A program made the position numbers and the translations under genes. This document shows positions 29,693-46,100 of a stretch of 64,000 bases of DNA, one piece after another. The DNA is taken from contig JACKFJ010000001.1 of assembly GCA_020632535.1 (NCBI GenBank), positions 346,890 through 410,889 on the forward strand. Direction: 5' to 3'. This DNA is from Candidatus Omnitrophota bacterium (lineage in GTDB: Bacteria > Omnitrophota > Gorgyraeia > Zapsychrales > JANLHA01). Each line of letters begins with the position of its first letter. The first letter of the stretch is position 1. Below the pieces are notes generated by a model. It worked only from the letters and a program-made list of their open reading frames with translations, searched no databases and was not told where the DNA came from.

Positions 29693-30250
29693 ATGATTGA
29701 ACATGAAATGCTTTTTCTTGGGCTTTTAGTTGACGGTCCCAAGCATGGGTACGAGATTAAGCGCAAAATTGACGAGGAACTTTTTCCGTTTGTCGGGTTG
29801 AAAGTCAAGTCGATTTACTATCCATTAAAAAAAATGGAGCAGTTGAAATTAATTCACAAAGATGTTGGTCGTGAAGGAAAGTATCCCGAAAAGTTTGTTT
29901 ACAGTATCACGCCGCAGGGTCGTAAAATCTTTGATCATCTAATCACCGATAGTTTTGTTTCGATTGAGCGGCCTTTCTTTAATATTGATCTTTCTTTGTA
30001 TTTTTTGCCTTATGTCGATCAGAAAATTGCGCATAAGAAGTTGCGGGGGCGCGTTATTTTTTTGAAGCGAATCAAGCGTGACTTGACCGTTTTGCATCAC
30101 AAGCACTCGCCGAATCTTGAGCAACATTTGTCCATTATTCTTGAGCATGATTTAGACCTTGTCGAAGCTGAAATCAAGTCTTTGACCCGCCTGTTGGACA
30201 TGCTGCAAGTCCCACCTAAATCTCCCAAATCTGACCGAAGAAGTGCTTGA
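29693..30250 (+). CDS. PadR-family transcriptional regulator (long form with C-terminal domain)
   Basis: LLVDGPKHGYEIKRKI ... SIYYPLKKMEQLKLI ... KFVYSITPQGRK, the winged-helix PadR signature. Confidence 0.8.
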   Translation: MIEHEMLFLGLLVDGPKHGYEIKRKIDEELFPFVGLKVKSIYYPLKKMEQLKLIHKDVGREGKYPEKFVYSITPQGRKIFDHLITDSFVSIERPFFNIDLSLYFLPYVDQKIAHKKLRGRVIFLKRIKRDLTVLHHKHSPNLEQHLSIILEHDLDLVEAEIKSLTRLLDMLQVPPKSPKSDRRSA

Positions 30251-30404: not shown

Positions 30405-31928
30405 ATGAATACATTTGCAATTCTTCAAGAAAATGCCGCAAAGTATGGAAATAAGCCAGCTCTTATTTTTCATGATCATATTGTGACGTTTGCTGATCTT
30501 CCGGCTAAGGTTTTTCGCTTGGCGAATGCTTTGCAGAAGGCGGGATTGCAAAAAGGCGACCGTCTTGGGATTTGTCTTGCGAATGGCCCTGAATTTGTTT
30601 ATGCGTATTTAGCGGGCTTTATTTGTGGCGCGGTGGTTGTTCCGCTTGACTTTATGCTTAAAAGTGATGAGATTTCTTCATGTTTAACGCACTCGGAAGC
30701 AAAAATTTTTATTGCTGCTGATCGTCCTGATCTTAATCTTTCTGTTATTCGTGACACAATTCCAACTCTCAGAGAAACGATTGTTTTTAATCGTGAAAAA
30801 GGCGCGGCCAATCCATTTCAACAATGTCTCGACGCCTCTTTTGAATCACCATTAAAAGTTGAAGTCAATGACACTGATCCTGCTTTAATTATGTATACAT
30901 CGGGAACAACTGGAAGCCCCAAGGGGATTTTGCTTAACTATCAGCATCTAAAGGGTTCGCCGGAAGCGATGAAGTACTTTGTCGATTTAACGGATAAAGA
31001 CATTAAGCTTGCCGCGATTCCCTTTAGTCATGTTGCTGGGTTTATTTATATTCAAAACTGCATCATTTTTGGTATTACGCTCGTGATTATGGACCGTTTT
31101 AACCCGTATGAATTTTTGCGGCTTGTTCAGGAGCATAAGGTGAGCTGTTTTCACATTGTTCCGGCGATGTATACAGCACTTTTGTCGTTAAAACAGATTG
31201 AAAAATTTGATTTGTCATCATTGCGATGGGTTGTGGTTTTTGGCGCTCCAAGCTCGCCTGAAATTATGGAGCGTTTTCATAAATATTGTCCTAACGCGCA
31301 ATTGCTTAATGGTTGGGGCATGACCGAAACTTGTCCGCCTAACACGGTGACACCTTTAGGCAGTCGCAATATCGCCAGCGTCGGCAAACCTTCACCATTA
31401 TCTGAAATCAAGATTGTTGATGAAGAGGATCGTGAAGTTGCCGTGGGGAAAATCGGTGAGATTTTGATACGTGGCTGGATTGTGATGAAGGAATATTATA
31501 AAGATCCCGAAAGCACTGCGCAGATGAAGCGCAATGGGTGGCTTTATACGGGTGATATTGGTCGTAAAGATGAGGAAGGGTTCATTTATATCGTCGGACG
31601 TAAAAAAGAAATGATCAAAGTCGCGGGGCAAATTGTTTACGCGCCAGAAGTTGAGTCTGCTTTTTACAAGCATGAATCTGTTCTTGAAGCCGCAGTTATT
31701 GGTGTGGCTGATGATATGCGCGGGGAGGTCGTTAAAGCTTTTATTGTTCTAAAGCAAGGACAGCACGTCTCTCCGGAAGATTTGCGCTATTTTGCTCGTG
31801 AGCATTTGGCGAATTTTAAAGTTCCACAAACGATCGAAATACGCGGTCAATTGCCTAAGAATCGTACGGGGAAAATTGATAAAGAAATTTTAAAATGCGA
31901 AAGGAAAAGCGATGCAAAATATGCGTAA
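30405..31928 (+). CDS. acyl-CoA synthetase / AMP-dependent ligase (ANL superfamily)
   Basis: MYTSGTTGSPKG (A3), GWGMTE, YTGDIGRKDEEGFIYIVGRKKEMIK and PKNRTGKI (A10 Lys). Confidence 0.85.
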   Translation: MNTFAILQENAAKYGNKPALIFHDHIVTFADLPAKVFRLANALQKAGLQKGDRLGICLANGPEFVYAYLAGFICGAVVVPLDFMLKSDEISSCLTHSEAKIFIAADRPDLNLSVIRDTIPTLRETIVFNREKGAANPFQQCLDASFESPLKVEVNDTDPALIMYTSGTTGSPKGILLNYQHLKGSPEAMKYFVDLTDKDIKLAAIPFSHVAGFIYIQNCIIFGITLVIMDRFNPYEFLRLVQEHKVSCFHIVPAMYTALLSLKQIEKFDLSSLRWVVVFGAPSSPEIMERFHKYCPNAQLLNGWGMTETCPPNTVTPLGSRNIASVGKPSPLSEIKIVDEEDREVAVGKIGEILIRGWIVMKEYYKDPESTAQMKRNGWLYTGDIGRKDEEGFIYIVGRKKEMIKVAGQIVYAPEVESAFYKHESVLEAAVIGVADDMRGEVVKAFIVLKQGQHVSPEDLRYFAREHLANFKVPQTIEIRGQLPKNRTGKIDKEILKCERKSDAKYA

Positions 31929-32676
31929 AGAAATACATATGACAGGTCAAGATTTGATGGGTATGGTGCAATTGCGGCCGGAAGATTTGGGTGGGTATGC
32001 CTTAGTGCCGGGTCCCAAGGAACGCCTTGACGCGATTGTTAAGAAATTAGCAAATCCGGTTAAGAATTTTTCGTTTATGGAATACAACATGTTTACCGGT
32101 GATTATAATGGCACAAAAGTTACCGCGATTAATGGGGGACGTTTTGCGGCGGATACTGGGATCACGACGGAAATCCTTTGCAACGCGCAGGCAAAAGTTA
32201 TGATTCGCTTAGGTAGTTGCGGGGCTTTGCGCGAAGACATTAAGGTCGGAGATTTGATCGTTGTTGAAAGCACATTTAGCGGTGAGGGGGTAACGCCGTA
32301 TTATGTCGATAAAAATTTTAAAACCGTATCCGATAAGAAATTATCTGACGATCTTGTCGGCATCGCTCGAAAATCTGGCAATACTGTTCACGTCGGAAAA
32401 TGCTGGTCAACCGACGCAATTTTGAGGGAAACCCGTGAGAATGTCGGTAAAGCTGTGGCGGAAGGCGCGATTGCGGTTGATATGGTCAGTTCAGTTTTTT
32501 TAACGATTTGCCAACTTTATAAAATACCTGCCGCAGTTATTTTGGCGGTCAGTGATAATGTAATTACGGGTGAAATGGGATTTTTAAACACGGATTATTA
32601 TATGGCAGAAGGAACGATGATCAATGTCGTCTTTGACTTGATTAAACAACGGGAAGCGGCAAAAACGGGAGTTTAG
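31912..32676 (+). CDS. nucleoside phosphorylase, PNP_UDP_1 (hexameric NP-I) family; substrate unknown
   Basis: ALVPGPKERLDAI, FTGDYNGTKVTAINGG, VMIRLGSCGAL, VGDLIV and AIAVDMVSS are collinear with DeoD/Udp/MTA-phosphorylase-type enzymes. Alternative starts at 31921 and 31939. Confidence 0.75.
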   Translation: MQNMRKEIHMTGQDLMGMVQLRPEDLGGYALVPGPKERLDAIVKKLANPVKNFSFMEYNMFTGDYNGTKVTAINGGRFAADTGITTEILCNAQAKVMIRLGSCGALREDIKVGDLIVVESTFSGEGVTPYYVDKNFKTVSDKKLSDDLVGIARKSGNTVHVGKCWSTDAILRETRENVGKAVAEGAIAVDMVSSVFLTICQLYKIPAAVILAVSDNVITGEMGFLNTDYYMAEGTMINVVFDLIKQREAAKTGV

Positions 32677-32679
32677 GTT

Positions 32680-33651
32680 TTGAAAAAAGAGTCACCATTG
32701 TTTTGGCCAGCATATTTAAAGGGCGATATTCTTTTTGTCCTCGATGAGACGCTTGTCCCGAAGCAGTTAAAATACGTCAAGGTCAGGAATATCGACGAAG
32801 CGGTCGCGGTTATTTGTGAAATGAAGACGCGCGCTTTTGGACAGTTTCTTGTTGTTTTGAGTACTTTTCTTTTAGAGTTTAATCGTCAGCCGCAGTTAAA
32901 CGGTGAAGAATTGCTCGAGAAAATCCGCAATGTCGCGCACGCGCTTAATCATAGTCGTCCGACTTTTCCATTTAGTGAAGTCACGAGCGTTGTGGTACAT
33001 TGGGCGCATGGCGCTTTGGATGCAGGGCAGGATGTTCGCGCCATTGTTATAAAAAATGTGAATGGGTATTTGCAGGGGATTCGCCATCGGCGTTTGGATC
33101 GCGTGGCAAAAATTGCGGCAAATATCAAGGATGGTGATAGTGTTTTAACTCATTGTAATGTGAGCGGCGAATTGGCTATGGCCGCCGCGATATGTCGTGA
33201 ACAAAAAAAGGATGTTCAATTTTATTGCACAGAAACCCGTCCTTATTTTCAAGGCGCAAAATTGACATATTGGGAATTAAAGCAAATGGGTGCAGATGTT
33301 ACGCTCGTCGCTGATAATGCGATTGCGACATTGATGGCTGACAAAATGGTCAATAAGGTTATCGTCGGTTCGGATCGCAATTGCGCCAATGGAGACTTTG
33401 CAAATAAAATCGGGACATATCAAATTGCCGTATTGGCAAACGAGTTTAAGGTTCCGATGCTTGTTTTGACGCAACCATCACAAAAAATTAAATCAGGTGC
33501 TGATATTCCCGTTGAGATTCGTGATGAAAGTGAGTTGTTGCAGTTTAATGGTCGCAAAGTTTTTAGCAGTAAGGTCAAAGGACTTTATCCGGGTTTTGAT
33601 GTTGTTCCGCACCATTACGTGAGAAAAGAGATTGCAATCGATGTCCACTGA
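32680..33651 (+). CDS. eIF-2B alpha/beta/delta-like sugar-phosphate isomerase (MtnA / ribose-1,5-bisphosphate isomerase family)
   Basis: VLTHCNVSG, CTETRPYFQGAKLTYWELKQMGADVTLVADNA, VIVGSDRNCANGDFANKIGTYQIA. TTG start. Confidence 0.8.
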   Translation: MKKESPLFWPAYLKGDILFVLDETLVPKQLKYVKVRNIDEAVAVICEMKTRAFGQFLVVLSTFLLEFNRQPQLNGEELLEKIRNVAHALNHSRPTFPFSEVTSVVVHWAHGALDAGQDVRAIVIKNVNGYLQGIRHRRLDRVAKIAANIKDGDSVLTHCNVSGELAMAAAICREQKKDVQFYCTETRPYFQGAKLTYWELKQMGADVTLVADNAIATLMADKMVNKVIVGSDRNCANGDFANKIGTYQIAVLANEFKVPMLVLTQPSQKIKSGADIPVEIRDESELLQFNGRKVFSSKVKGLYPGFDVVPHHYVRKEIAIDVH

Positions 33652-34201
33652 GATTAAAAATGTCACGCTCATTTACGGGGCTTTTAAGGAAGATTTTTTT
33701 ACGGCTTTAAAAAAATGTCAAGTTAAGGATATTGTTGTCCTCGAAGGTCGTCCGACTTTGGAATCGAGTCGCCATGCCGTTTTGAATTTAAAAAAGATTG
33801 GAATTATTCCGACGATTATCGCGGACAATATGGCGGGTTATTTGTTTTCGAAAGGATTGGTTAAAGAAACTTGGTTAGCAAGTCAGGCGGAAGATAAGGC
33901 GGGGGCGATGTGTGAGATTGGGGCTTTGATTTTGGCTGTTTTGGCAAAAAATCATCAAATCCCGGTTTTTACATATGCCGCCGAAAAAAAGCGCAAGCCA
34001 TTGGGCAAGCCGGCCGATTTACAGAAATTTAATGGTCAAAGTGTTGTTACTGGCAAAATCAAAGCGTTCGTACCGTTGATCGAATGGGTTCCGGCAAAAT
34101 ATTTGCGCTCATTGCGAAAAAATGCAGGGCGTAAAGCCATTTCGCCGAGATTGTTGCGTCGTCCGAACGAACTCCTTGCAATAGGAGGTGCAAATGAATA
34201 A
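33641..34201 (+). CDS. short eIF-2B-like paralogue (C-terminal Rossmann-like half only)
   Basis: DIVVLEGRPTLESSRHAVLNLKKIGIIPTIIADNMAGYL ... CEIGALILAVLAKNHQIPVF mirrors the second half of the MtnA family. The N-terminal domain is absent, and both ends overlap the neighbouring genes. Confidence 0.55.
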   Translation: MSTEIKNVTLIYGAFKEDFFTALKKCQVKDIVVLEGRPTLESSRHAVLNLKKIGIIPTIIADNMAGYLFSKGLVKETWLASQAEDKAGAMCEIGALILAVLAKNHQIPVFTYAAEKKRKPLGKPADLQKFNGQSVVTGKIKAFVPLIEWVPAKYLRSLRKNAGRKAISPRLLRRPNELLAIGGANE

Positions 34202-35300
34202 TGACATTATTTTGAGTTTAAAACGAAACATCGAAGCCATTGGACGTTTGCTCTGGGAAAAAGATCTTGTTACAGGTTTGAATGGAAATATCAGCACGCG
34301 TTTGAGTGATGAAAATATTTTAATTACCGCAACCAAAACGTGTTTAGGCCTATTGCAGGAAAATGACATTGTTGAATTAGACTTGGAAGGCAATGTTGTT
34401 GGCGATGGTCAGGCTTCTAGTGAGCGCCTGTTGCATGTCGCAATTTATAAGGCATTTCCAGAAATGAGCGCGGTGGTGCATACGCACACGGCGTATACCA
34501 ATGCTTATTTTCTTGAGAATGACAGTTTGACGCCGCGGATTTTTGAATCCAAATTGTATTTAGGTGATGTCAGCGCGGTCCCGCAATTGACGCCCGCTGT
34601 TTCGGATGTTGGGCCGGTTCTTGAAGCTCTTAAGTCCAACAGTATTGTTGTGTTAAAAAATCATGGTGTTGTCGCGATGGGAAAAGATTTGTTTGATTGT
34701 TTTCTTCTTGTGCAGTGCTTGGAAGAGGCGGTCAAGATTGACGCGATTAGCCGTTTGTATCATCGTTTTACAGATGTCAATGATTTGAAACCTTCTTTGA
34801 AGATCGGGAAACCTGAAGTCGCCAGCAAAAAAGTTGAACCTAAGGTTAAGAAATTGCCAGATTCTTTCTCGCAAGAGGAGCTTGATTCAACTGCAAAGAT
34901 TTCAGAAAGTCCGGTGGTGCCTAAAAAATTTAAACTTTTTTCGGGTGAACAGATTGGTGAAATTGTCCGTTTGGTTAATGCTGATGTGCAAATGCAAGAT
35001 CTCGGCAAGAAGACAAAAATGACGATGTCTTTGGCCGTTAAACTCAATGAGACCGGTGAGGTGTTTTGTTTTCATTTTGAAGATGGGCAGATTATTGAAA
35101 TTGATAAAGACAAAGAGCCCGAATTTTTAATTTCCGCGCCCGAAAATATTTGGCGCGCGGTGTTTAATCGGCAAATTGATCCATTTGTCGCGACAACGCA
35201 AAAGAAAATGCACTTGCAGGGCGATTTCGCTAAGATTTCCAAATGGTATGCGCCGTGCAGTCGTATTTTTGAACTTTGGGCACAGGTTCCAATCGAATAA
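34188..35300 (+). CDS. class II aldolase/adducin-domain protein fused to a C-terminal SCP2-like lipid-binding domain
   Basis: N-terminal part: GLNGNISTRL, ASSERLLHVAIY, AVVHTHT (Zn His ligands), LKNHGVVAMG. C-terminal part: EFLISAPENIWRAVFNRQIDPFVATTQKKMHLQGDFAKISKW resembles the SCP2 C-terminal pattern. Confidence 0.75.
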   Translation: MQMNNDIILSLKRNIEAIGRLLWEKDLVTGLNGNISTRLSDENILITATKTCLGLLQENDIVELDLEGNVVGDGQASSERLLHVAIYKAFPEMSAVVHTHTAYTNAYFLENDSLTPRIFESKLYLGDVSAVPQLTPAVSDVGPVLEALKSNSIVVLKNHGVVAMGKDLFDCFLLVQCLEEAVKIDAISRLYHRFTDVNDLKPSLKIGKPEVASKKVEPKVKKLPDSFSQEELDSTAKISESPVVPKKFKLFSGEQIGEIVRLVNADVQMQDLGKKTKMTMSLAVKLNETGEVFCFHFEDGQIIEIDKDKEPEFLISAPENIWRAVFNRQIDPFVATTQKKMHLQGDFAKISKWYAPCSRIFELWAQVPIE

Positions 35301-36803
35301 ATGACAACGATCAAAACACAAATTCAGGAATTTAAGTTTTCTGTCAACGGCAATTTACGCCATGGCCGTGACGGAAAGTTCTTTGACTGTGTCAATCCTT
35401 CGACGGGTGACGTGTTTGCGAAAGTCGCGGATGCTAGCGTAGAAGACATGAAAGACGCGATCGCCAGCGCGCGTTACGCTTTTGACTGTGGCGAGTGGTC
35501 GGGTTTCAAACCCGAGGACCGTGGAAAATATTTAGCACAATTTGCAAATTTGATCCGGGAGAACGCCAAACTTCTCGCGGAATTAGAAATGCTTTCGACC
35601 GGCAAGACTTTAAAGCACACGACCTTTATCGACGTGCCGACTTGCGCGGATACATTTGAGTATTTTGCTGGTGCCGGTGCTCTTTTAAATGATGTGCCCA
35701 ATCCCGTTTCGGGTCCGGTTAAAAGTGTGACAGCGTATGAGCCGATGGGTGTTGTTGGGAGTATTATTCCGTGGAATTATCCCCTGATTATGCTGGCGTG
35801 GAAAATCGCGCCGGCACTTTTAGCAGGCAATACCGTTGTGTTAAAACCGTCGTCGTTGGCGAGTGTGTCGATCGCAAAATTTGCCGAAATCATTGAGCAA
35901 GCCGGTTTACCCAAGGGCGTTTTAAACATCGTAACAACAAGTCGCCACGAAGTGGCTGAAGTACTCGTGAAAAGTAAAAGTGTTGATATGATTAGTTTTA
36001 CCGGCGGCACCGAGACAGGTAAAGAGATCATGAAAATGTGCAGTGAGACGACAAAAAAACTTTCTTTAGAGCTCGGCGGGAAATCGCCGACAATTATTTT
36101 TGAAGATTGTGACTTAGAAACCGCTGTCGGCGGCACAATGTCCGCGATTTTTATTAATCAAGGACAAATGTGCACGGCGGGTTCACGACTTTTGATTGAT
36201 GAAAAGATTGCCGAGCCATTTTTGCGGCTGCTTGTCGAGAAGACAAAAAGTTTAAAAATCGGCCCCGCGACGAGTTACGAAACGGATTTTGGCCCATTAA
36301 TTAACGTCGCGCATCGCGATAAAGTTTTAGAGTGTATTAAAAAAGGTATCAAAGAAGGCGCGGTGGTTTTGTGCGGCGGTAAAATTCCCGAATCGGAAGA
36401 ATTAAAAAGTGGTGCGTACATTGAACCGACGATTTTAAGCAAAGTCAATAATCAAATGACCGTCGCGCGGGAAGAAATTTTCGGACCGGTTTTGGTGGTC
36501 ATGAAATTTAAGGATGAGGACGAAGCTGTTTTGGTCGCCAATGATTCCTCATACGGTTTGGCGGCGTCAGTATGGAGTAAGGATTTAGTAAAGGCAAATC
36601 GTGTCGCGAAAAAATTGCAGTGCGGCACTGTGTGGATCAATACATACGGCGCATTTTTTAATGAAGCCCCTTTTGGGGGATATAAGCAAAGTGGATTTGG
36701 GCGGCAATTGGGTCTTGAGGGTTTGTTGGCCTACACACAATCCAAACATATCTGCATTGATCAAACTCCGGGAGGTCGTCCGCTTGTTGCGGCATGGTTC
36801 TGA
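35301..36803 (+). CDS. NAD(P)+-dependent aldehyde dehydrogenase
   Basis: PWNYPL, FTGGTETGK, LELGGKSP (catalytic Glu), NQGQMCTAGSR (catalytic Cys) and EEIFGPV. Confidence 0.9.
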   Translation: MTTIKTQIQEFKFSVNGNLRHGRDGKFFDCVNPSTGDVFAKVADASVEDMKDAIASARYAFDCGEWSGFKPEDRGKYLAQFANLIRENAKLLAELEMLSTGKTLKHTTFIDVPTCADTFEYFAGAGALLNDVPNPVSGPVKSVTAYEPMGVVGSIIPWNYPLIMLAWKIAPALLAGNTVVLKPSSLASVSIAKFAEIIEQAGLPKGVLNIVTTSRHEVAEVLVKSKSVDMISFTGGTETGKEIMKMCSETTKKLSLELGGKSPTIIFEDCDLETAVGGTMSAIFINQGQMCTAGSRLLIDEKIAEPFLRLLVEKTKSLKIGPATSYETDFGPLINVAHRDKVLECIKKGIKEGAVVLCGGKIPESEELKSGAYIEPTILSKVNNQMTVAREEIFGPVLVVMKFKDEDEAVLVANDSSYGLAASVWSKDLVKANRVAKKLQCGTVWINTYGAFFNEAPFGGYKQSGFGRQLGLEGLLAYTQSKHICIDQTPGGRPLVAAWF

Positions 36804-36900: not shown

Positions 36901-38388
36901 ATGAAAGTTCTATTTTTAACACCACCGCTAAAAGCTTGGGATTCACATGGAGATCACAAAGCCGCCAATCAAATGCACGCGCAGCTTGCCGCCTATTTAC
37001 GTGAAAAAAAATTAGCTGAGGTTGCTGCTTTGGATTGCCGCGCCTTGGACATGACATGGGAAGACATGATTAAGGAAGTTGCTAAAATCAAGCCGGGTCT
37101 CGTTTTTGTCGGAGAGCTTTTGCATTCGACATGCGGGGCGGCCGTTATTGGTTATTTTAACGATGCTTTAAAGTTAATAAAAGAGTACGACAAAAATATT
37201 AAAACAGTGGCTGGCGGACTTTGGTATTCGGGCGACTATGATCGGCAAATGCGTTTAAATCCGTGGATCGATTATATCATGATCGGTGAAGCCGAATTGA
37301 CATTAGAGGATCTCTTGATCAATTTTCGTGATCAGAAAAAAGATGAAAAGGACATTCCCGGCCTTGTTCATCGCGATGCTCAGGGAACGATCGTAGTTGG
37401 GCCGCATCGGGACATGATTCCTGATCTCAATGTTTTGCCGATGCCAGCTTATGATCTTTTTCCGATGGAAAAATACGTTGGCCATACGTATTGGAAACCA
37501 TTCGCGGAGCTTATGACATCGCGCGGCTGTCCGGGCAAATGCCATTTTTGTTACGAATGGGCTTTGTATGATTCGCGCACGGCCGCAAAAGATTTTACAT
37601 CATGGCGCGGATTAAAAGGTAAGCGCATTGTTGATGAATTAGATCTTCTCGAAAAAACTTACGGTGTGACAACAATCGTCTTTCAAGATGACGCCTTTAA
37701 CACCGACACCGCGGCGATGATTGAGTTCTGCGAAGAAAAATTAAAACGTGGTAATAAAATTGACTGGGTGTGTTTAGGTCGTGCGGATCAATGGATTCTT
37801 CAGCAAGACATTTTGCCACTCATGAAAAAGGCGGGACTATTTCTTGCCTTGACCGGCGTTGAGGTTGAGGACGATTTGAGTTTACACAAAAGTGGAAAAG
37901 GGATAACGATTGCGCAGATTAAAAAAACCGTCGATATCTTGCGACAAAACGATATTGGATCCGTCGGAACAGTTTTGATTGGGCTTAAGGAGGACACCGA
38001 AGCAAAAATTAAAGAGCGTTTGCGAATTGCTGATGAAATTGACCCCGATGTGTTCGCGCTTGATTATTTAACACCAGTTCCTAATTCACCGGACTGGAGA
38101 TACGGGATTAAAAAGGGTTGGTTTGATCCCGAAAAAATTGATCTAAAGACTTGGGATTTTCAACATCCGGTTATCCCGACTGACTTTTTAACAGTTGAAG
38201 AAGTCGGACGTTTAGGGGCGTGGTGTATGCGTGAATATTATTCCAAGCCAGAGAGAATTCATCGCATTTTTTCCAGCAACTATGACGAAAAAGTCAAGTT
38301 ATGCGTTAAGGACTTCATGGCGAATATTGCCAAATGGGAAGCTAACTCGCGCATGCCAGCGACAACAGGCATCGCCGTAAATAAGTAA
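36901..38388 (+). CDS. B12-binding-domain radical SAM enzyme (class B rSAM)
   Basis: N-terminal cobalamin-binding-like domain (MKVLFLTPP...). Radical SAM cluster motif SRGCPGKCHFCYEW (CxxxCxxC). RBS aaggag. Confidence 0.85.
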   Translation: MKVLFLTPPLKAWDSHGDHKAANQMHAQLAAYLREKKLAEVAALDCRALDMTWEDMIKEVAKIKPGLVFVGELLHSTCGAAVIGYFNDALKLIKEYDKNIKTVAGGLWYSGDYDRQMRLNPWIDYIMIGEAELTLEDLLINFRDQKKDEKDIPGLVHRDAQGTIVVGPHRDMIPDLNVLPMPAYDLFPMEKYVGHTYWKPFAELMTSRGCPGKCHFCYEWALYDSRTAAKDFTSWRGLKGKRIVDELDLLEKTYGVTTIVFQDDAFNTDTAAMIEFCEEKLKRGNKIDWVCLGRADQWILQQDILPLMKKAGLFLALTGVEVEDDLSLHKSGKGITIAQIKKTVDILRQNDIGSVGTVLIGLKEDTEAKIKERLRIADEIDPDVFALDYLTPVPNSPDWRYGIKKGWFDPEKIDLKTWDFQHPVIPTDFLTVEEVGRLGAWCMREYYSKPERIHRIFSSNYDEKVKLCVKDFMANIAKWEANSRMPATTGIAVNK

Positions 38389-38398
38389 AGGGAATGTA

Positions 38399-38686
38399 AT
38401 GACAACGACATTTATCAAAATGCATTGGGATCCAAAAACCGAAGAATTGTTTTTGGCCACGATCAAAAAGATTCCGCTTTTTCATCGGGACATCGCCCGC
38501 GAAGTTGTGGAAAAAAAGGCACAGATTAACGCGCAGGCGCGAGGATCGACTTCGGTCGAAGAAAGCGATGTCGTCGATGCGTTTTTCTCGGAAGTTCCCA
38601 AAGCATTCTATAGTTTAATGGTCCGAATTTTAGATGAGGCAGGTTTAGATTATGGCAAGCATATTTCCGCGCAAGGCAAAAAGTAA
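38399..38686 (+). CDS. small PCP_red-like (protochlorophyllide-reductase C-terminal-domain-like) protein
   Basis: W-x5-E-x8-KIPLFHRDIAREVVEKKAQINAQARGSTSVEESDV follows the pattern I recall for PF08369 proteins that accompany BchE-type rSAM enzymes. Confidence 0.45.
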   Translation: MTTTFIKMHWDPKTEELFLATIKKIPLFHRDIAREVVEKKAQINAQARGSTSVEESDVVDAFFSEVPKAFYSLMVRILDEAGLDYGKHISAQGKK

Positions 38687-39143
38687 AGACACGATTCTTC
38701 ACGAGTTTATGTTTTTGGAAGCACCAATTGAGGCTGTTTCCGCAGAACTGATCGCATGGGGCGAATCTACTTGGTGGCCGCAAGATTCATTGTGGAAATA
38801 TATTCGTCAGACCGACGGACCTGTCGCGGTTGGGACGCAATATGTAATTAAGATTAACAAAAAGTCCGCACCGGATTGGGCCGCGGAAGTCACTCAGCTT
38901 TTACCAAATCGTGTGATTGAAAGGACTTTTACCAAGGGTCTTTTTAAAGGTTTTGAACGCATCATGATGGAAGAGCGCGCCAACGGAACGCGTGTTGATT
39001 ATGAATTGCATTTTCAAATTCGCGGTCCGTTAAATCTGATTCTTTGGCCTTTGGTTTTGCGAAAGCAGTATGTCTCAACGATTAAGACAACACTTGACGC
39101 GTTGCGAAATTTTTTAATTGCGGAAGCCAAAAAGCATTTGTAA
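38652..39143 (+). CDS. SRPBCC/START-fold protein (polyketide_cyc2-like); start uncertain (alternative ATG 38709)
   Basis: About 150 aa in the alpha/beta pattern of the SRPBCC superfamily (IEAPIEAV...W...TQYVIKI...RVIERT...VDYELHF). Start 38652 overlaps the upstream gene by 35 nt. Confidence 0.55.
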   Translation: MASIFPRKAKSKDTILHEFMFLEAPIEAVSAELIAWGESTWWPQDSLWKYIRQTDGPVAVGTQYVIKINKKSAPDWAAEVTQLLPNRVIERTFTKGLFKGFERIMMEERANGTRVDYELHFQIRGPLNLILWPLVLRKQYVSTIKTTLDALRNFLIAEAKKHL

Positions 39144-39160
39144 AGTTGGAGTCATTCAAA

Positions 39161-40159
39161 ATGAAAATTGCTGTGATCGGAGCCGGAGCCATTGGATCAG
39201 TTGTCGCCGCGGGATTGTTCAAATCCAACGTCGACGTTCTGCTGGTTGGACGGGCTGATCAAGTCGCAGCCATTAAGGAACGGGGACTGACAATAAAGCG
39301 TTTTGATGGCACTGAAACGCTTAATGTTCCGGTAGCAGAGCGCTTGGATCGTGAATTTGATCTGGTGATTTTTACGACAAAAACGCAGGATGTTGATGAT
39401 GCGTACATGCAAAATTCAGAGTTTATGGAAAATTGTCTGGTGTTGGCGACACAAAACGGGGTGCAGGGAGACAATATTTTAAGTCCACATTTTTTCCCGG
39501 AACGCGTGATAAGCAGTATTGTGATGTTTGGCGCGACCTATGTTAAGCCCGGCGAAGTCACTTACAATTTTCCGGGTGACTGGATTATTGGCAAACGTTT
39601 TGTGATGAATGATATTAAAGTCCATGAGATTGCGGACATTTTAAAGAAAAGTTTTTCGGTTGAAGTGACTGACAATATATTAGGGATGAAATGGTTAAAG
39701 CTTTTCGTTAATTTTAATAATTGTATTCCGGCCTTGATCGGCAAGTCGATGCAGGAAACTTTTACCGATATGGATTTGTGCCGCTTGAGCGTCTCACTTT
39801 TAAAGGAAGCCTTGCCGATTGTACAGAGCGCTAATATCAAACTTGTGTCATTGCCGCAATTTCCTGTTGAGCGGGTGCAAGGCTTAGCGGCCATGCCATT
39901 AGAACAAGGCGCTGGCATTATGAATAAGACATTGACGGGATTAAGCAAAGAGCCGCTTTATGGGTCAATTCTACAAAGTATTTTGCGTGGCAAGACCAGT
40001 GAAATTGATTTTATTAATGGGGAAGTTGTGGCAATCGCATCAGGAATGAGAATGGATGCTCCACTTAATCGTAAAGTTGTGCGTATGGTTCACACCGTTG
40101 AAGAGACGGGAAAGTTTTTTTCAGCAGAAGAAGTTAAAAAGGAATTTAGTTTGGTCTAA
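39161..40159 (+). CDS. 2-dehydropantoate 2-reductase family (ApbA/PanE-like) NAD(P)H oxidoreductase
   Basis: MKIAVIGAGAIGS Rossmann start. LVLATQNG, KLFVNFNNCI and EIDFINGEV match the KPR family. Confidence 0.8.
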   Translation: MKIAVIGAGAIGSVVAAGLFKSNVDVLLVGRADQVAAIKERGLTIKRFDGTETLNVPVAERLDREFDLVIFTTKTQDVDDAYMQNSEFMENCLVLATQNGVQGDNILSPHFFPERVISSIVMFGATYVKPGEVTYNFPGDWIIGKRFVMNDIKVHEIADILKKSFSVEVTDNILGMKWLKLFVNFNNCIPALIGKSMQETFTDMDLCRLSVSLLKEALPIVQSANIKLVSLPQFPVERVQGLAAMPLEQGAGIMNKTLTGLSKEPLYGSILQSILRGKTSEIDFINGEVVAIASGMRMDAPLNRKVVRMVHTVEETGKFFSAEEVKKEFSLV

Positions 40160-40163
40160 TAAT

Positions 40164-40251: not shown

Positions 40252-40270
40252 CTGAGGGATGGAGTTTTAT

Positions 40271-41527
40271 ATGGCACGACGAGTCGTAGTTACTGGTATC
40301 GGAATTGTTTCACCCAATGGCGTCGGTAAAGAAGCCTGTTGGAAAAGTATGATCAATGGCGTGTCGGCGGTTAAACGTGTGACCGAGTTTGATGTGACAC
40401 CTTTTAATACCAAAATTGCCGCGCAGGTCAGAGATTTTGATCCTGTCATGTTGGGCTTGACGTGGGAAGAAAGTATGCGCATGGATCGCTATGTGCAGTT
40501 TGCGGTTGTCAGCGCGCGTATGGCCCTAGAAGATTCCCATTTGAATTTGAGCAAAGTTAATCCCCAGCGAATTGGTGTTTCTCTTGCCAACGCGATTTGC
40601 GGGACCAAATATATGGAAGAGGAATTTGCGCTTGTGACCGACAGCGGCAAAAATCCAATTAATCCCGCGATTGTTCGCCCTGATCTTTATGACGCGGCGA
40701 TGTTTAATACACCGTCGAGCGAAATTTCCGCGAAGTATGGACTTAAAGGTGTTTGCAATACGATCTCGACGGGTTGTACTGCGGGAACTGATTCGGTAGG
40801 GTTTTCGTTTGAAACGATTATGGATGGCGATGCGGATATTATGGTGACCGGTGCGGCCGAAGCCCCGATTACCCCGATCACATTTGGCGCGTTTGATACC
40901 GTCAATGTTCTTTCAGCGATGAATGAATTTCCAGAAAAAGCGTCTCGTCCTTTTGATGCGAAGCGCAATGGTTTTGTCATTTCTGAAGGCGCAGGTGTTC
41001 TCATTCTCGAAGAATTACAACATGCCAAGAAGCGTGGCGCACGGATTTATTGTGAAGTCGTTGGTTTTGGGACGACCAACAATGCTTTTCATATGACGGA
41101 TTTACCTCCGGATGGCGACGCGATGGCCGATTGCATTAATATTGCGATGGATGAAGCAAAAGTCAAGCCACAAGACATCGATTATCTTAATGCCCACGGT
41201 TCCTCGACGAGGCAGAATGATGTTTTTGAAACGAGCGCGTATAAAATGGCTTTAGGAGATCACGCGTACAAAATTCCAATCAGTTCGCTTAAGTCGATGA
41301 TTGGCCATCCCTTGGCTGGCGCCAATGGTTTGGAACTTGCCGTTGGATGTATGATTTTTGAACGTAATATTTTGCCGCCGACAATCAATCAAGAATTTCC
41401 AGATCCACAATGTGATTTAGATTATATCCCCAACGTGAGTCGTGAAAAGAAAGTTAATGTCATGTTAAAAACTTCGAGCGGTTTTTCGGGGATCCACTCG
41501 GCCATGGTGTTAAGAAGATTTGAATAA
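40271..41527 (+). CDS. type II polyketide synthase ketosynthase alpha (KS-alpha)
   Basis: RRVVVTGIGIVSPNG. TISTGCTAGTDSVG with the Cys codon at 40775-40777. EAPITPITFGAFD, ASRPFD, FHMTD, NAHGSST, PDPQCDLDYIP and SSGFSGIHSAMVLRR. Collinear with actinorhodin-type KS-alpha as I remember it. Confidence 0.9.
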   Translation: MARRVVVTGIGIVSPNGVGKEACWKSMINGVSAVKRVTEFDVTPFNTKIAAQVRDFDPVMLGLTWEESMRMDRYVQFAVVSARMALEDSHLNLSKVNPQRIGVSLANAICGTKYMEEEFALVTDSGKNPINPAIVRPDLYDAAMFNTPSSEISAKYGLKGVCNTISTGCTAGTDSVGFSFETIMDGDADIMVTGAAEAPITPITFGAFDTVNVLSAMNEFPEKASRPFDAKRNGFVISEGAGVLILEELQHAKKRGARIYCEVVGFGTTNNAFHMTDLPPDGDAMADCINIAMDEAKVKPQDIDYLNAHGSSTRQNDVFETSAYKMALGDHAYKIPISSLKSMIGHPLAGANGLELAVGCMIFERNILPPTINQEFPDPQCDLDYIPNVSREKKVNVMLKTSSGFSGIHSAMVLRRFE

Positions 41528-41561
41528 AATGAGCGATATATTTTATAAAATGGAGTTTTAA

Positions 41562-42794
41562 ATGCAGCCTATTGCGATTACCGGTATCGGTTTAGTTACA
41601 CCCAGCGGGATTGATAAAAGAAAGTTTTGGTCGAATATTGTCCATGGCCGATCCGTCATTAAGAAAATTGATCGTTTTGACGCATCATTATATGAATCTC
41701 ATATTGCCGGACAAGTGCATGAATTAGACGCATACAGCAATGTCTCCTCGCGGCTTTTAAAAAAGATCGATTTATTTTCGCATATGGGTTTGGTCGCCTC
41801 CGAAATCGCGATCACTGACGCTAAGCTAGATCTTGCGCAAGAGAACTTGAAACGCGCTGGTATTTTTATGGGTAATGCCATTGGCGGTTGGCTCTACGCC
41901 GAAACCGAATTGCGTGATTTGTATCTAGAGGGAAGAGAAGGCGTAAGCCCATTTATGGCCTCCGCGTGGTTTCCCGCCGCGCCGCAAGGTCAAATTTCCA
42001 TTCATTACGGCATTAAGGGCTACAGCAAAACCATCGTCGCTGATCGAGCGAGTTCTCTGATGGCCATCGGCTATGGCGCAAAAAATTTATTGCGCGGCAA
42101 AAACGACTTTATTCTTGCCGGCGGCATGGAGGCGCCTGTCACACCGTACGCGCTTTTGTGTTGCAACACATCGGGGTGTCTTTCTTCTAATAATGACGAA
42201 GCCGAAACCGCGTATCGGCCGTTTGATAAACAACGTGACGGGTTTGCCATTGCTGAGGGCGCGGGAATTTTGATTTTAGAACCACAAGAGCGTGTCAAAT
42301 CGCGCGGTGCACATGTGTATGGCAATATTATTGGTTTTGCGACGACGACAGATGGTGTGAATCGTATTGAACCTGCGACGGACGGTGTGGAATTGGCCCG
42401 CGCGATCAAAATGGCTTTGGATGATGCCGGCCTTGCGCAGAAAGATATTGATTATATTTGTGCCGACGGTGCGGGCGGACTTTTAAGCGATATTTCTGAA
42501 ACCAAGGCGATCAAATTAGTCTTTGGTGATTACGCTAAAAAGATCCCAATTTCAGCGCCCAAAGCCGTTTTCGGAAATATGTTAGGCGCGTGCGGCGCGC
42601 TTGATGTGATAACGACATTGTTGGCGATGGAGCATGACCTTATTCCACCGACGATTAATCTCAAAATGCCTGACCCACAATGTGATTTAGATTATGTTCC
42701 CAATGAAGCGCGTGCCAAAGTTATAAAAAATGCGATGGTCATCAATCGCGGCCGCGGCGGCATCAATTGCGTTTTAGTTTTGCAGAAACCTTAA
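41562..42794 (+). CDS. type II PKS ketosynthase beta / chain-length factor-like subunit (catalytic triad absent)
   Basis: KS fold (IAITGIGLVTPSG, AWFPAAPQGQISIHYG). TIVADRASSLMAIG replaces the Cys motif, with Arg codon CGA at 42045-42047. TTDGV replaces HMTD and CADGAGG replaces NAHGSST. PDPQCDLDYVP is retained. Confidence 0.85.
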   Translation: MQPIAITGIGLVTPSGIDKRKFWSNIVHGRSVIKKIDRFDASLYESHIAGQVHELDAYSNVSSRLLKKIDLFSHMGLVASEIAITDAKLDLAQENLKRAGIFMGNAIGGWLYAETELRDLYLEGREGVSPFMASAWFPAAPQGQISIHYGIKGYSKTIVADRASSLMAIGYGAKNLLRGKNDFILAGGMEAPVTPYALLCCNTSGCLSSNNDEAETAYRPFDKQRDGFAIAEGAGILILEPQERVKSRGAHVYGNIIGFATTTDGVNRIEPATDGVELARAIKMALDDAGLAQKDIDYICADGAGGLLSDISETKAIKLVFGDYAKKIPISAPKAVFGNMLGACGALDVITTLLAMEHDLIPPTINLKMPDPQCDLDYVPNEARAKVIKNAMVINRGRGGINCVLVLQKP

Positions 42795-43245: not shown

Positions 43246-44043
43246 ATGATCATCGACCTTTCCTTACCTATCGACGACAAACTCGTCGAAACCCATGATG
43301 CCAAAATCGACCGCATTTCGCATGCACAAGGTGTTGAGCATTTTAATTGGGTTGTTATGAAAAATCAGCCCGGCGGTCAAGAACGTTTTGACAAAGGCGA
43401 GCGCGTCGCGACCAAAGAAGAAATTCCTGACGGCGAAATGTTATCACTCGAAATCGTTCATTCATCCGTTCATATGGGTAGTCACGTTGACGCGCCGTTT
43501 CATTATGGCAGCACATGCGAAGGCAAGCCTGCCAAGCAAATTATGGATGTTCCGCTTGAGTGGTGTCTTGGTCCCGGTGTTGTTTTAGATTTTACCCACA
43601 TTCAATTTCCCGCCGCAATTGGCAAAAAAGATGTACAAGACGCTTTAGCAAAAATCAATTACAAACTAAAACCGATGGATATTGTTTTGCTTTATACTGG
43701 CGGTGACAAGTTGCTCGGCACAGATGATTATGTTAATAAATATGTCGGTTGCACAGTAGACGCGATTGAATATTTGCTGGATCAGGGTATCAAGATGATG
43801 GGTGTGGACACGATTGGTTTAGATCGGCCATGCTTTTTGATGTTTAAGGAATTTTTGACGACGAAAGATAAGAGTAAGATTTGGCCATGCCATTTCTTGG
43901 GTCGTCGTAGGGAATATTGTCACATGGAGCGCTTGGGAAATTTGGGCGCGATACCCAAACCATTTGGTTTTACGGTTTCTTGTTTGCCGGTTAAAGTTAG
44001 AAATGCCGGAGCGGGATGGAGCCGCGTTGTCGCGATTGTTTAA
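43246..44043 (+). CDS. cyclase-family protein (PF04199; kynurenine-formamidase / putative polyketide cyclase fold)
   Basis: The family motif HxGTHxDxPxH is present as HMGSHVDAPFH. Also MGVDTIGLD. Confidence 0.75.
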   Translation: MIIDLSLPIDDKLVETHDAKIDRISHAQGVEHFNWVVMKNQPGGQERFDKGERVATKEEIPDGEMLSLEIVHSSVHMGSHVDAPFHYGSTCEGKPAKQIMDVPLEWCLGPGVVLDFTHIQFPAAIGKKDVQDALAKINYKLKPMDIVLLYTGGDKLLGTDDYVNKYVGCTVDAIEYLLDQGIKMMGVDTIGLDRPCFLMFKEFLTTKDKSKIWPCHFLGRRREYCHMERLGNLGAIPKPFGFTVSCLPVKVRNAGAGWSRVVAIV

Positions 44044-45451: not shown

Positions 45452-45491
45452 TTATGGGACACACACGTAATTCAATTGTTATCAGTGCACC
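45452..45491 (+). repeat. 40-bp direct repeat, downstream copy (authentic 5' end of the aromatase/cyclase gene)
   Basis: Identical to 44868-44907. Confidence 0.9.
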
Positions 45492-45909
45492 GTATAGTTT
45501 GGTTTTCGACATTTCCAATAAGATTGAACGTTGGACAGAATTGTTCGGCGATGAATATGTGAGCGCCGAAGTTTTGGAACGCAAGGACAATGAAATTGTT
45601 TTTCGCTTAACCGACGACGAAAAAAAGTCGTGGGTTTCCAAACGATGGCTTTTTAAGGAACACAATCTCGCGTATGCGTCACGGTATGAGCCGATGTTTC
45701 CGTTTCGCTATATGAAAATTATCTGGCTGTATAACGAAACTTCCGAAGGCACGGAAATGATTTGGATGCAGGATTTTGCGATGGATGAAAAATTTACCAA
45801 ATTCACAGAGACACAGATTGAAGGCTTTATTAATGAGCATTCACAGCATAATATGAAAATATTTAAAAAGGTCATTGAGGCTGAGGCTAAAGTAACAGTG
45901 GACAAATAG
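45454..45909 (+). CDS. SRPBCC aromatase/cyclase (TcmN N-terminal-domain / WhiE-ORFVI-like ARO/CYC)
   Basis: TRNSIVISAPYSLVFDISNKIERWTELFGDEY ... SWVSKR ... FRYMKIIWLY ... GTEMIWMQDFAMDE parallels the TcmN ARO/CYC sequence as I recall it ([30 protein letters not shown] ... MRWVQEFDM). Confidence 0.8.
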   Translation: MGHTRNSIVISAPYSLVFDISNKIERWTELFGDEYVSAEVLERKDNEIVFRLTDDEKKSWVSKRWLFKEHNLAYASRYEPMFPFRYMKIIWLYNETSEGTEMIWMQDFAMDEKFTKFTETQIEGFINEHSQHNMKIFKKVIEAEAKVTVDK

Positions 45910-45910: not shown

Positions 45911-46100
45911 CCTGTCATTCCTGCAATCTTTTATCGGGAATCCATGAATATAAGTAATCCTGTCATTCCCGCAATCTTTTAGCGGGAATCCATGAATATA
46001 AGTGGATCCCCGATAGTAACATTCGGGGATGACATGTTGAATCATTCGGGGATGACATGTTGAATCATTCGGGGATGACATGTTGAATCATTGGGGATGA
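45911..46100. repeat. family-A repeat cluster, copy 4: a 48-nt unit x2, then a 23-nt unit x3.5
   Basis: cctgtcattcc(t/c)gcaatctttta(t/g)cgggaatccatgaatataagt at 45911-45958 and 45959-46003. attcggggatgacatgttgaatc at 46021-46043, 46044-46066 and 46067-46089, plus a partial attggggatga at 46090-46100. Confidence 0.9.

Follow-up and report, generated by a model that had tools for sequence, protein, structure and literature searches.

A 64-kb stretch of DNA from a Candidatus Omnitrophota bacterium (contig JACKFJ010000001.1; the whole stretch is called the window below) carries four genes at 36901-40159 directly before a gene for a ketosynthase (KS). Together these genes form the middle module of a single gene cluster, which covers about 19 kb from 29.7 to 49.3 kb. 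A first-pass annotation of the window had described them as four tightly packed genes upstream of the core of a type II polyketide synthase (PKS), and the open reading frames (ORFs) were found as follows:

36901..38388, plus strand: class B (B12-binding) radical S-adenosylmethionine (SAM) enzyme of 495 residues, called rSAM here, with the Pfam domains B12-binding and Radical_SAM
38399..38686, plus strand: 95-residue four-helix protein (p95) that resembles PCP_red and DUF2621, according to Pfam matches at the family level and an AlphaFold2 model
38652..39143, plus strand: 163-residue protein (p163) of the SRPBCC/START fold, an optional accessory, according to an AlphaFold2 fold and Polyketide_cyc2 matches of its family
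39146..40159, plus strand: NAD(P)H reductase of the KPR (ApbA/PanE) family, with ApbA and ApbA_C above the cut-off

Between rSAM and p95 there is a gap of 10 nt, p95 and p163 overlap by 35 nt, p163 and KPR are 2 nt apart, and KPR is separated by 99 nt from the KS gene, which starts at 40259. In the ORF map of the 64-kb window, the genes from 29693 to 49253 are all co-directional on the plus strand and closely spaced. The cluster consists of three modules: a nucleoside-to-acid module (module 1), rSAM with its helper proteins and KPR (module 2) and a type II PKS (module 3). Module 1 is composed of an adenosine monophosphate (AMP)-forming acyl ligase (AMP-ligase), a nucleoside phosphorylase (PNP), an MtnA-like isomerase with a half-size paralogue, a fusion of a class II aldolase with SCP2 and an aldehyde dehydrogenase (ALDH). 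Module 2 holds the B12-type rSAM, the PCP_red-like p95, the optional START-fold p163 and the KPR reductase. Module 3 contains the KS, a dead KS partner that resembles a chain length factor (CLF), an acyl carrier protein (ACP), a PF04199 cyclase, an SRPBCC protein, a short-chain dehydrogenase/reductase (SDR), an Amidohydrolase_2 protein and a major facilitator superfamily (MFS) transporter.

The window's own layout was called type A. A scan that took one genome per species returned 80 type A loci, i.e. at least 80 species-level genomes. All were metagenome-assembled genomes (MAGs) of Omnitrophota or labelled 'uncultured Planctomycetales' or 'Verrucomicrobiota', and their rSAM was 74-92% identical to that of the window. 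The genes were counted by tblastn with the window proteins, and loci long enough to show a given gene were taken as eligible. KS was present in 53 of 53 eligible loci, the CLF-like partner in 47 of 47 and the PF04199 cyclase in 40 of 40. KPR was found in 62 of 63, p95 in 69 of 70, ALDH in 62 of 64, PNP in 48 of 49 and AMP-ligase in 43 of 45. Across the 80 loci no violation of the gene order was observed. That 80 species-representative genomes keep this order puts the arrangement far outside what chance would give. When rSAM sequences were clustered at 90% identity, more than 120 clusters had 77-92% identity to the window protein, and every named one was from Omnitrophota. Homologue searches with rSAM, p95 and p163 were saturated by such Omnitrophota orthologues and returned no distant names.

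The four genes had been taken as a block of their own. This did not hold, since p163 is optional (23 of 63 eligible loci; 33-69% identity, far less conserved than the other genes) and the other constant partners of rSAM lie upstream of 36901: AMP-ligase, PNP, the two IF-2B genes, the aldolase-SCP2 gene and ALDH. In this lineage the block never occurs without the KS pair, yet it is not an autonomous four-gene unit. One 7.2-kb contig (L032) has rSAM without p95 and KPR downstream, and a phosphorylase match is the only other one present. This arrangement could be a rearrangement or a misassembly.

The rSAM protein has a B12-binding domain (PF02310) at residues 28-138 with 38.7 bits (cut-off 32.1) and a Radical_SAM domain (PF04055) with 49.2 bits, both over the cut-off. 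The CPGKCHFC motif, which had been read earlier as the mark of a class B enzyme, begins at residue 210, and C210, C214 and C217 of this CxxxCxxC pattern are invariant in 70 orthologues. By its architecture rSAM is a class B radical SAM enzyme, and the use of cobalamin is predicted. The best curated match was BchE (TIGR02026), aligned with residues 3-473 at 180.1 bits vs a cut-off of 481.35. Lower scores were obtained with HpnJ (123.9 bits, cut-off 577.6), BzaD (98), HpnR (77.9, cut-off 650) and TIGR04072, the ladderane-associated B12-type radical SAM enzyme (65.8, cut-off 360). An identity as BchE, HpnJ, HpnR or the ladderane-associated enzyme was rejected since every curated cut-off was missed, and no bch or chl genes were present among the annotated genes of the 64-kb window. 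Judged from these profiles of the TIGRFAM type, rSAM belongs to no characterised subgroup; membership in one had been named earlier as a possible outcome. A motif, SRGCPxxCxFCYEW, and pairwise identities delimit its subfamily, which comprises sequences of at least 40% identity.

The nearest curated models, BchE, HpnJ and BzaD, are non-methylating. Most characterised class B radical SAM enzymes are methylases, and rSAM might accordingly be an ordinary tailoring enzyme, a cobalamin-dependent C-methyltransferase for an aromatic polyketide with p95, p163 and KPR as accessories, while the upstream block would be merely syntenic catabolism. The PKS half of the cluster does resemble aromatic systems (cyclase, SRPBCC protein, ketoreductase), and rSAM relatives of 32-33% identity adjoin trans-acyltransferase (trans-AT)-like type I PKSs. 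In one type II PKS pathway, an anthraquinone receives its methyl group from a HemN-like radical SAM enzyme, which is class C (PMC9714029). The best hidden Markov model (HMM) matches of rSAM to non-methylating families speak against a methylase, as does a separate methyltransferase, which is usually present: a SAM methyltransferase was found in most of the relatives' loci.

For p95, the proposed likeness to PCP_red found support at the level of the family. DUF2621 matched 15 of 15 members (best 6e-8) and PCP_red 13 of 15 (best 1.3e-5), with the window protein itself under both Pfam cut-offs (DUF2621, PF11084, 22.4 vs 27.7; PCP_red, PF08369, 16.2 vs 32.5). The AlphaFold2 model of p95 (predicted local distance difference test, pLDDT, 84) has four helices. 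Its two best Foldseek matches in the PDB were 2kru, the PCP_red domain of subunit B of the dark-operative protochlorophyllide oxidoreductase (DPOR), and 2l09, the stand-alone asr4154, with probabilities of 0.99 and 0.96 but weak E-values of 0.03-0.07 and TM-scores of 0.35-0.52. The PCP_red domain, which p95 resembles, binds the product of BchE. We consider p95 a likely partner of rSAM. As a separate gene, p95 was found in Omnitrophota only.

A B12-type rSAM relative of 33% identity (L090, 3830-12374) lies among three Peptidase_U32 proteins with DUF2621-like C-terminal regions. From these fusions beside an rSAM relative it follows that the p95-type domain accompanies this enzyme family in fused form too. 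The same locus also holds a HemN-like radical SAM enzyme, a SPASM radical SAM enzyme and UbiE-like methyltransferases.

The p163 protein of the window had no significant match to Pfam or other families, and Polyketide_cyc2 matched 7 of the 16 members of its family. Its AlphaFold2 model (pLDDT 91.6) shows the helix-grip fold with a beta-alpha-beta6-long-alpha topology and gave 250 SRPBCC/START matches in the PDB at E<=1e-3, with SMU.440, the PYL receptors and norcoclaurine synthase at the top of the list. The SRPBCC assignment made earlier was thereby upheld. Comparison of the p163 family with the downstream SRPBCC family by hhalign showed no signal (probability 1%), so the fold was settled by structure prediction alone. 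PDB sequence searches with p95, p163 and the p163 profile yielded nothing useful. A Candidatus Omnitrophica MAG has an annotated protein that is identical to p163.

KPR is a reductase of the ApbA/PanE type, as had been proposed: ApbA (101.3 bits) and ApbA_C (59.7 bits) both passed the cut-off, and the TIGR00745 subfamily was matched with 162.9 vs 141.35. A function as PanE, the 2-dehydropantoate 2-reductase, was rejected since all equivalog cut-offs were missed (NF005092, 140 vs 500; NF006083, 136 vs 371).

Upstream of rSAM, the cluster starts with a regulator that is followed by the genes of module 1:

29693..30250, plus strand: PadR-family regulator at the head of the cluster (Pfam PadR, 5e-11), kept upstream in related loci
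30405..31928, plus strand: AMP-forming acyl ligase of the fatty-acyl type (AMP-binding, 4.5e-87)
31912..32676, plus strand: nucleoside phosphorylase/nucleosidase, PNP_UDP_1, of the hexameric NP-I type (Pfam, 3e-31)
32680..33651, plus strand: full-length MtnA-type sugar-1-phosphate isomerase of the IF-2B family (IF-2B, 3.3e-50)
33632..34201, plus strand: half-size IF-2B paralogue with the C-terminal domain only (IF-2B, 2.2e-11, profile positions 128-267 of 280)
34188..35300, plus strand: class II aldolase with a C-terminal SCP2-like lipid-binding extension (Aldolase_II, 1.7e-38; SCP2, 2.4e-5)
35301..36803, plus strand: aldehyde dehydrogenase of the Aldedh family (Aldedh, 1.2e-173)

The best NCBIfam match of the AMP-ligase was the long-chain-fatty-acid--CoA ligase with 456 bits (cut-off 476), and acetate--CoA ligase reached only 274. 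The nearest relatives of the phosphorylase were uridine phosphorylase and DeoD; it also matched the hexameric methylthioadenosine (MTA) phosphorylase 1jds of Sulfolobus, the MTA/S-adenosylhomocysteine (SAH) nucleosidase and HpnG (3e-13). The full-length isomerase passed the cut-off of the eIF-2B_rel subfamily (188.6, cut-off 185.85). Its 3' end is overlapped by the gene of the half-size paralogue, which is kept in types A and B (type B is a second layout described below). The PDB chains nearest to the aldolase were aq_1979 and fuculose-1-phosphate aldolases, and DrdA (6btd) was also matched. The SCP2 match is weak (2.4e-5) and was rated 'weak' in other loci as well; it was recorded also in L003 and L086. 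The aldehyde dehydrogenase resembles betaine-, aminobutyr- and phenylacetaldehyde dehydrogenases and is predicted to be non-acylating.

The consecutive PNP_UDP_1, IF-2B and Aldolase_II genes represent the clustered trio of the dihydroxyacetone phosphate (DHAP) shunt, or 5-deoxyribose salvage. This trio of 5'-deoxyadenosine/MTA salvage and a four-step route from 5'-fluorodeoxyadenosine to fluoroacetate are described or cited in PMC6079011. Together with the aldehyde dehydrogenase, module 1 matches these four steps from 5'-fluorodeoxyadenosine to fluoroacetate.

Downstream of KPR lie the genes of module 3:

40259..41527, plus strand: KS-alpha-like ketosynthase with a Cys-His-His triad and PDB matches
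41562..42794, plus strand: catalytically dead, CLF-like KS partner with replaced triad residues
42885..43115, plus strand: acyl carrier protein (PP-binding, 2.3e-10) with the DS motif (...LGIDSTEL...)
43246..44043, plus strand: metal-dependent enzyme of the PF04199 'cyclase' family (Pfam, 2.9e-29)
45454..45909, plus strand: SRPBCC protein resembling polyketide cyclases/aromatases (Polyketide_cyc, 3.7e-5; Polyketide_cyc2, 1.1e-4), kept in types A and C (a third layout)
46091..47245, plus strand: MFS transporter (MFS_1, 1.8e-38), kept in most type A loci
47258..48031, plus strand: SDR ketoreductase-like protein (adh_short, 2.7e-49; KR, 1e-11), kept in types A and C
48351..49253, plus strand: Amidohydrolase_2 family protein (Pfam, 7.5e-15), the last gene of the cluster in types A and C

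The Cys-His-His triad of the KS is invariant in 60 orthologues, save for one alignment gap at the first His. The PDB chain matched best was the actinorhodin KS 1tqy_A (402 bits), followed by AntD of Photorhabdus (6smo_B, 386 bits), and the best FabF reached 367 bits. Judged from these scores, the KS is closer to the KS-alpha of PKSs than to FabF, in agreement with its first assignment as KS-alpha. In the partner the triad residues are changed from Cys to Arg, His to Asp and His to Asn, with Asp-Arg in place of Gly-Cys; this is kept in 50 of 50 true orthologues. Both His residues are replaced in type A, and the active-site position in type C is Arg or Lys. The canonical Gln of CLFs is not present in the partner, where Arg was found in 50 of 50 orthologues, and its sequence is more FabF-like than CLF-like. 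The CLF Gln is thought to enable self-priming by decarboxylation of malonyl groups. A supplied starter unit is therefore plausible for a partner without this Gln. The ACP is discrete and has the Ser for the phosphopantetheinyl group. With 79-94% identity, few genes of the cluster are as well conserved as the PF04199 cyclase. The Amidohydrolase_2 family includes non-oxidative decarboxylases of aromatic acids, and a role as decarboxylase is presumed here from the family.

A KS with a dead partner next to a B12-type radical SAM enzyme could also belong to a pathway for a modified fatty acid or a ladderane-like lipid, in which the KS pair would be an elongation heterodimer of the fatty acid synthase (FAS) type and rSAM would rearrange the acyl chain. 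The FabF-like sequence of the dead partner and the hydrophobic-handling parts of relatives are in line with this. The anammox FabF2/FabFmut pair is a KS/CLF-like heterodimer whose cluster has been proposed for ladderane synthesis (bioRxiv 10.64898/2026.05.19.726425), and 'ladderane' calls of the antiSMASH type are reported for Omnitrophota MAGs (PMC9902471). The analogy to ladderanes, which the first-pass annotation had raised, was not borne out by the scores. TIGR04072 gave 66 bits vs 360, and the KS scored the actinorhodin KS and AntD above FabF and above the chains of 9s5h. With the two chains of this entry, the scores of the KS pair were 280 and 203 bits, well under the actinorhodin KS (402) and FabF (367). 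We take PDB entry 9s5h to be the anammox FabF heterodimer. In addition, the proteins encoded in the cluster include a cyclase, one of the SRPBCC type and one that resembles decarboxylases, but no dehydratase or enoyl reductase. We regard such a lipid pathway as improbable.

A housekeeping FAS function of the KS pair was rejected because plsX-fabH-fabD are located elsewhere in the window. These genes lie at 60667-63684, at the right edge of the window and apart from the KS/CLF cluster. By its position, this FabD is the nearest malonyl transferase candidate for the ACP of the cluster.

Between the PF04199 cyclase and the second SRPBCC gene, three genes interrupt the series at 44047-45425: one for a glutaredoxin-like protein, a 92-aa ORF and one for a ParE toxin. 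None of the related loci has the first, and nearly all are without the other two. The segment looks like a local toxin-antitoxin insertion within the cluster.

Beyond type A, a search with 50%-identity representatives returned one cluster for the Omnitrophota orthologues of rSAM, then sequences of 46%, 41% and 41% identity and then a continuum at 30-36%. Type B was found in other Omnitrophota MAGs, many of them hydrothermal, with an rSAM 45-46% identical to that of the window. The gene order of type B is (PadR)-(UbiE/CMAS-like methyltransferase)-AMP-ligase-rSAM-PNP-IF-2B-half IF-2B-aldolase/SCP2-ALDH-MMPL-DUF1329-DUF1302. KS/CLF, p95 and KPR were not found within 10 kb of the type B rSAM. In the type B locus L086, the stop codon of rSAM overlaps the start of PNP. 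As type B keeps the partners of module 1 and exporters without KS/CLF within 10 kb, rSAM alone is not tied to a PKS. The earlier expectation that the four-gene block co-occurs with KS/CLF pairs thus stood for type A, where the pair was found throughout, and did not stand for this rSAM relative. Since the type B relative keeps the upstream block without the PKS, the block is not a passenger. This weighs against a tailoring methyltransferase beside a syntenic catabolic block, which we regard as unlikely.

Type C was found in a different phylum, in Ca. Desulfofervidus auxilii, with rSAM 52-55%, KS 65-68% and CLF 61% identical. Its genes are ordered as flavin adenine dinucleotide (FAD) amine-oxidase-like protein, flavin mononucleotide (FMN) reductase, rSAM, aldehyde:ferredoxin oxidoreductase (AOR), KPR, a 190-aa protein, KS, dead KS, ACP, cyclase, SRPBCC protein, SDR and Amidohydrolase_2, and acyl ligases and DUF1329/DUF1302 genes lie upstream. 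The AMP-ligase occurs in types B and C as well. The phosphorylase-isomerase-aldolase trio was not found within 10 kb. AOR holds a role equivalent to that of the aldehyde dehydrogenase. In the complete Ca. Desulfofervidus auxilii genome (LR991656; L131, 11477-14299) AOR and KPR are one 940-aa fusion, whereas they are separate with a 4-nt overlap in a metagenome contig (L111, 11477-14412). The rSAM enzyme is the hub of the cluster, with its subfamily as the sole element common to all three layouts.

Several single observations were made in these loci. In the LR991656 record (L131) KS is split into two ORFs. The protein between KPR and KS has 189-191 residues and occurs in L111 (14424-14999) and in an Omnitrophota MAG (L088, 2553-3122) with 51% identity. 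It contains two repeats of the pattern 'FPC..ALxFGA...CPDGG', and the L111 copy is without a Pfam match, with none on record for the L088 gene. No relation of the L111 copy to p163 was found. The same MAG (L088, 1-11446) has two rSAM paralogues, 60% and 40% identical to that of the window, at both ends of a KS/CLF cluster. The contexts of relatives of 32-35% identity diverge: a trans-AT-like type I PKS, Peptidase_U32-DUF2621 fusions and, in an archaeon, a GH3/AMP-binding gene. A Nitrospinae relative is an orphan, with cluster genes not found nearby. In a Spirochaetales MAG (L091, 2907-12334), a type I PKS longer than 2750 residues and with trans-AT-like features has a 32%-identical relative directly upstream, and a thioesterase and a MatE exporter are found nearby.

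The three layouts also bear on the question of whether the modules are coupled at all. Two or three independent operons could have been kept adjacent by slow chromosome rearrangement, and gaps of 97-130 nt at ALDH/rSAM, KPR/KS and ACP/cyclase as well as the synteny of flanking housekeeping genes in close relatives would fit. However, the modules are arranged differently in types B and C and in different phyla, and every layout that has been retained still contains rSAM. It lies between the ligase and the phosphorylase in type B and directly before AOR-KPR and KS in type C. Such independence appears very improbable to us.

Our favoured explanation is tentative and short of probable. The rSAM enzyme would perform an O2-independent, non-methylating step, and module 1 would recycle the 5'-deoxyadenosine formed, giving DHAP and also a C2 acid for renewed use in the pathway. 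The cluster would make a hydrophobic polyketide-type metabolite without O2. With p95 presenting the substrate, rSAM might carry out a radical oxidation, cyclisation or rearrangement on an acyl or polyketide intermediate, in a chemistry like that of BchE or HpnJ with several SAM used per product. The co-product 5'-deoxyadenosine would enter module 1 by phosphorolysis, followed by aldose-ketose isomerisation of the 1-phosphate. Aldol cleavage would give DHAP and an aldehyde, which would be oxidised to the acid and then adenylated by the ligase; the series would be the one known from the DHAP shunt and from the route to fluoroacetate. The thioester formed in this way may prime the pair of KS and dead KS. 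KPR and SDR would reduce keto groups, the cyclases would fold the chain and the Amidohydrolase_2 protein would decarboxylate it. This reading is consistent with the synteny and co-occurrence, the hub pattern of rSAM, the non-methylating nearest models, the PCP_red-like p95, the enzyme series of module 1 and the KS-alpha-like KS with a dead partner. Three features make us lean towards a hydrophobic product: the SCP2 domain, the long-chain type of the ligase and, in relatives, exporters of the lipid type.

Several points weigh against this explanation. A pure salvage of the by-product does not explain the SCP2 extension and the conserved half-size isomerase, the long-chain type of the ligase (with the acetate--CoA ligase model far lower), the lipid-type exporters MMPL/DUF1329/DUF1302 of type B or the aldehyde oxidoreductase that is kept in type C despite no trio within 10 kb. 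The phosphorylase is of the uridine phosphorylase/DeoD type, with no MtnP model among the matches. Most class B radical SAM enzymes that have been characterised methylate, and the 32% relative in L091 adjoins a modular PKS, a context where C-methylation is usual. Promoter-like sites (45 vs 40.8±6.5 in shuffled sequences) and terminator-like sites (29 vs 23.2±4.0) were not in excess. The top promoter-like site (11/12), in a scan that overall was not above chance, is at 30247-30274 directly after the PadR gene. Because these scans gave no signal above chance, the operon structure was inferred from spacing and strand only.

A hydrophobic group on the sugar phosphate would accommodate the unexplained features better. 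Such a group would be present if rSAM adenosylates a lipophilic acceptor R and the ribose is then trimmed, so that the C4'-C5' carbons of SAM become a two-carbon extension, R-CH2-COOH. The 5'-deoxyadenosyl radical would add to an olefinic or aromatic R, the phosphorylase would remove adenine, and the isomerase pair and the aldolase-SCP2 protein would give DHAP and R-CH2-CHO. The dehydrogenase (or AOR) and the ligase would then form R-CH2-CO-thioester, which would be exported as a lipid in type B or serve as a starter for KS and dead KS in type A, where the product might be a phenolic or quinone-like lipid. Such a route accounts for the SCP2 fusion, the half-size isomerase and the long-chain-type ligase, for MMPL/DUF1329/DUF1302 beside module 1 in type B and for the overlap of the rSAM stop with the PNP start in L086. 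An aldehyde-oxidising enzyme adjoins rSAM in every layout, the phosphorylase matches HpnG (3e-13) and rSAM matches HpnJ and HpnR. In the futalosine pathway, MqnE and MqnB share the logic of adenosylation followed by a PNP-type step. Radical adenosylation is known only from HpnH and MqnE, which belong to other radical SAM subfamilies, and we know of no B12-binding radical SAM enzyme that adenosylates. A lipid-linked adenosine is processed by a PNP homologue in the HpnH/HpnG precedent (PMC13459092). In the clusters, no gene that would supply R was found, phosphorylase, isomerase and aldolase are missing from type C within 10 kb, and the SCP2 match (2.4e-5) is weak. We consider adenosylation rather unlikely because of the lacking precedent among B12-type enzymes, the lack of an evident acceptor gene and the absence of the trimming enzymes from type C.

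The GC content of the cluster is that of its flanks, which hold glycogen/thyA/folA genes and an rRNA operon. Vertical inheritance of the cluster is the best explanation. Within the flanks, the 23S rRNA gene (51657-55327) spans 3671 nt vs 2925 nt of the model, and the ORF at 53761-54318 in it encodes a LAGLIDADG_1 homing endonuclease (2.7e-21). This suggests that the large-subunit rRNA carries an intron or an intervening sequence. A 1171-aa ORF at 617-4132 had no Pfam match at E<=1e-5.

We found no description of this Omnitrophota cluster in the literature beyond a catalogue entry and possibly antiSMASH 'ladderane' calls: a KS/CLF catalogue (PMC10132072) mentions Candidatus Omnitrophica by phylum name and no further, and the 'ladderane' calls for biosynthetic gene clusters in Omnitrophota MAGs were reported without analysis (PMC9902471). 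Nor did we find a description of a type II PKS cluster that contains a nucleoside-to-acid module, or one that contains a class B radical SAM enzyme and a PCP_red-like partner. The literature likewise yielded no dedicated reuse of 5'-deoxyadenosine as the source of a PKS building block, no C2 homologation by radical adenosylation and nothing relevant on DUF2621/PCP_red. We place the cluster among type II PKS clusters that have radical SAM tailoring; its combination of modules is unusual.

Omnitrophota are abundant and uncultured and their physiology is largely inferred; the core enzymes of the cluster are 74-95% identical across at least 80 species-level genomes. This conservation throughout the phylum and the ordinary chromosomal context would suit a core metabolite, for example a membrane lipid or a redox-active lipid, better than an accessory antibiotic. 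The rSAM clade with the SRGCPxxCxFCYEW motif is uncharacterised and repeatedly travels with the nucleoside-to-acid series and a type II PKS. If adenosylation were true, a polyketide or lipid building block derived from the ribose of SAM would occur throughout the phylum and be shared with Ca. Desulfofervidus. The latter, Ca. Desulfofervidus auxilii, can presumably be grown in enrichment culture, and its homologous cluster would make the question experimentally reachable.

Among known systems, BchE has the same two-domain architecture as rSAM, with an N-terminal B12-binding domain and a radical SAM core, and p95 resembles the PCP_red domain of protochlorophyllide reductase subunit B. Unlike BchE, rSAM scores far under the equivalog cut-off, has no chlorophyll genes nearby and is surrounded by the PKS and the nucleoside module. 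With the hopanoid system of HpnH, HpnG, HpnJ and HpnN the cluster shares the co-occurrence of a B12-type radical SAM enzyme, a PNP_UDP_1 phosphorylase and, in type B, an MMPL-type exporter, and also the logic that a SAM-derived adenosyl group is handled by a PNP homologue. It differs in that every score is far under the respective cut-off, in that no squalene-hopene cyclase or HpnH was seen and in that the isomerase, aldolase and dehydrogenase would trim the ribose, not keep it.

The DHAP shunt (MtnP/MtnK, MtnA/DrdI, Ald2/DrdA) likewise has a phosphorylase, an MtnA-type isomerase and an aldolase of class II in one operon. In contrast to the shunt, the phosphorylase here is of the uridine phosphorylase/DeoD type, an extra half-size isomerase and an SCP2-like extension on the aldolase are present, and the linkage of the block to one rSAM subfamily and to a long-chain-type acyl ligase is constant. 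Aromatic type II PKSs (actinorhodin; AntA-I of Photorhabdus) resemble the cluster in the KS, the triad-less partner, the discrete ACP, the PF04199 cyclase, the SRPBCC protein, the SDR and the acyl ligase, with which the ligase AntG is comparable. The cluster departs from them in that the partner has Arg (or Lys) for Gln and is more FabF-like, and in that a class B radical SAM enzyme, a PCP_red-like protein and KPR are added. We assume that the host lineage, which is uncultured, is anaerobic.

The cluster of anammox bacteria for ladderanes (cluster I, with amxFabF2/amxFabFmut, amxACP and a BchE-like radical SAM enzyme) also combines a KS and a dead partner with a dedicated ACP and a B12-type radical SAM enzyme in a lineage related to the Planctomycetes-Verrucomicrobia-Chlamydiae (PVC) group. 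At the Cys position, Val or Thr is found in the dead partner of anammox bacteria and Arg in that of Omnitrophota. The Ca. Desulfofervidus homologue was chosen earlier as the type II PKS of an underexplored phylum, but when three KS/CLFs proved soluble in E. coli, that of the homologue did not belong to them (Cummings et al. 2019, PMC6638757). The Ca. Desulfofervidus auxilii cluster has rSAM, KPR, KS, CLF, ACP, cyclase, SRPBCC protein, SDR and Amidohydrolase_2 in the same order as the window. It differs in being without p95, p163 and the trio, in having AOR for ALDH and in its FAD amine-oxidase-like protein and FMN reductase.

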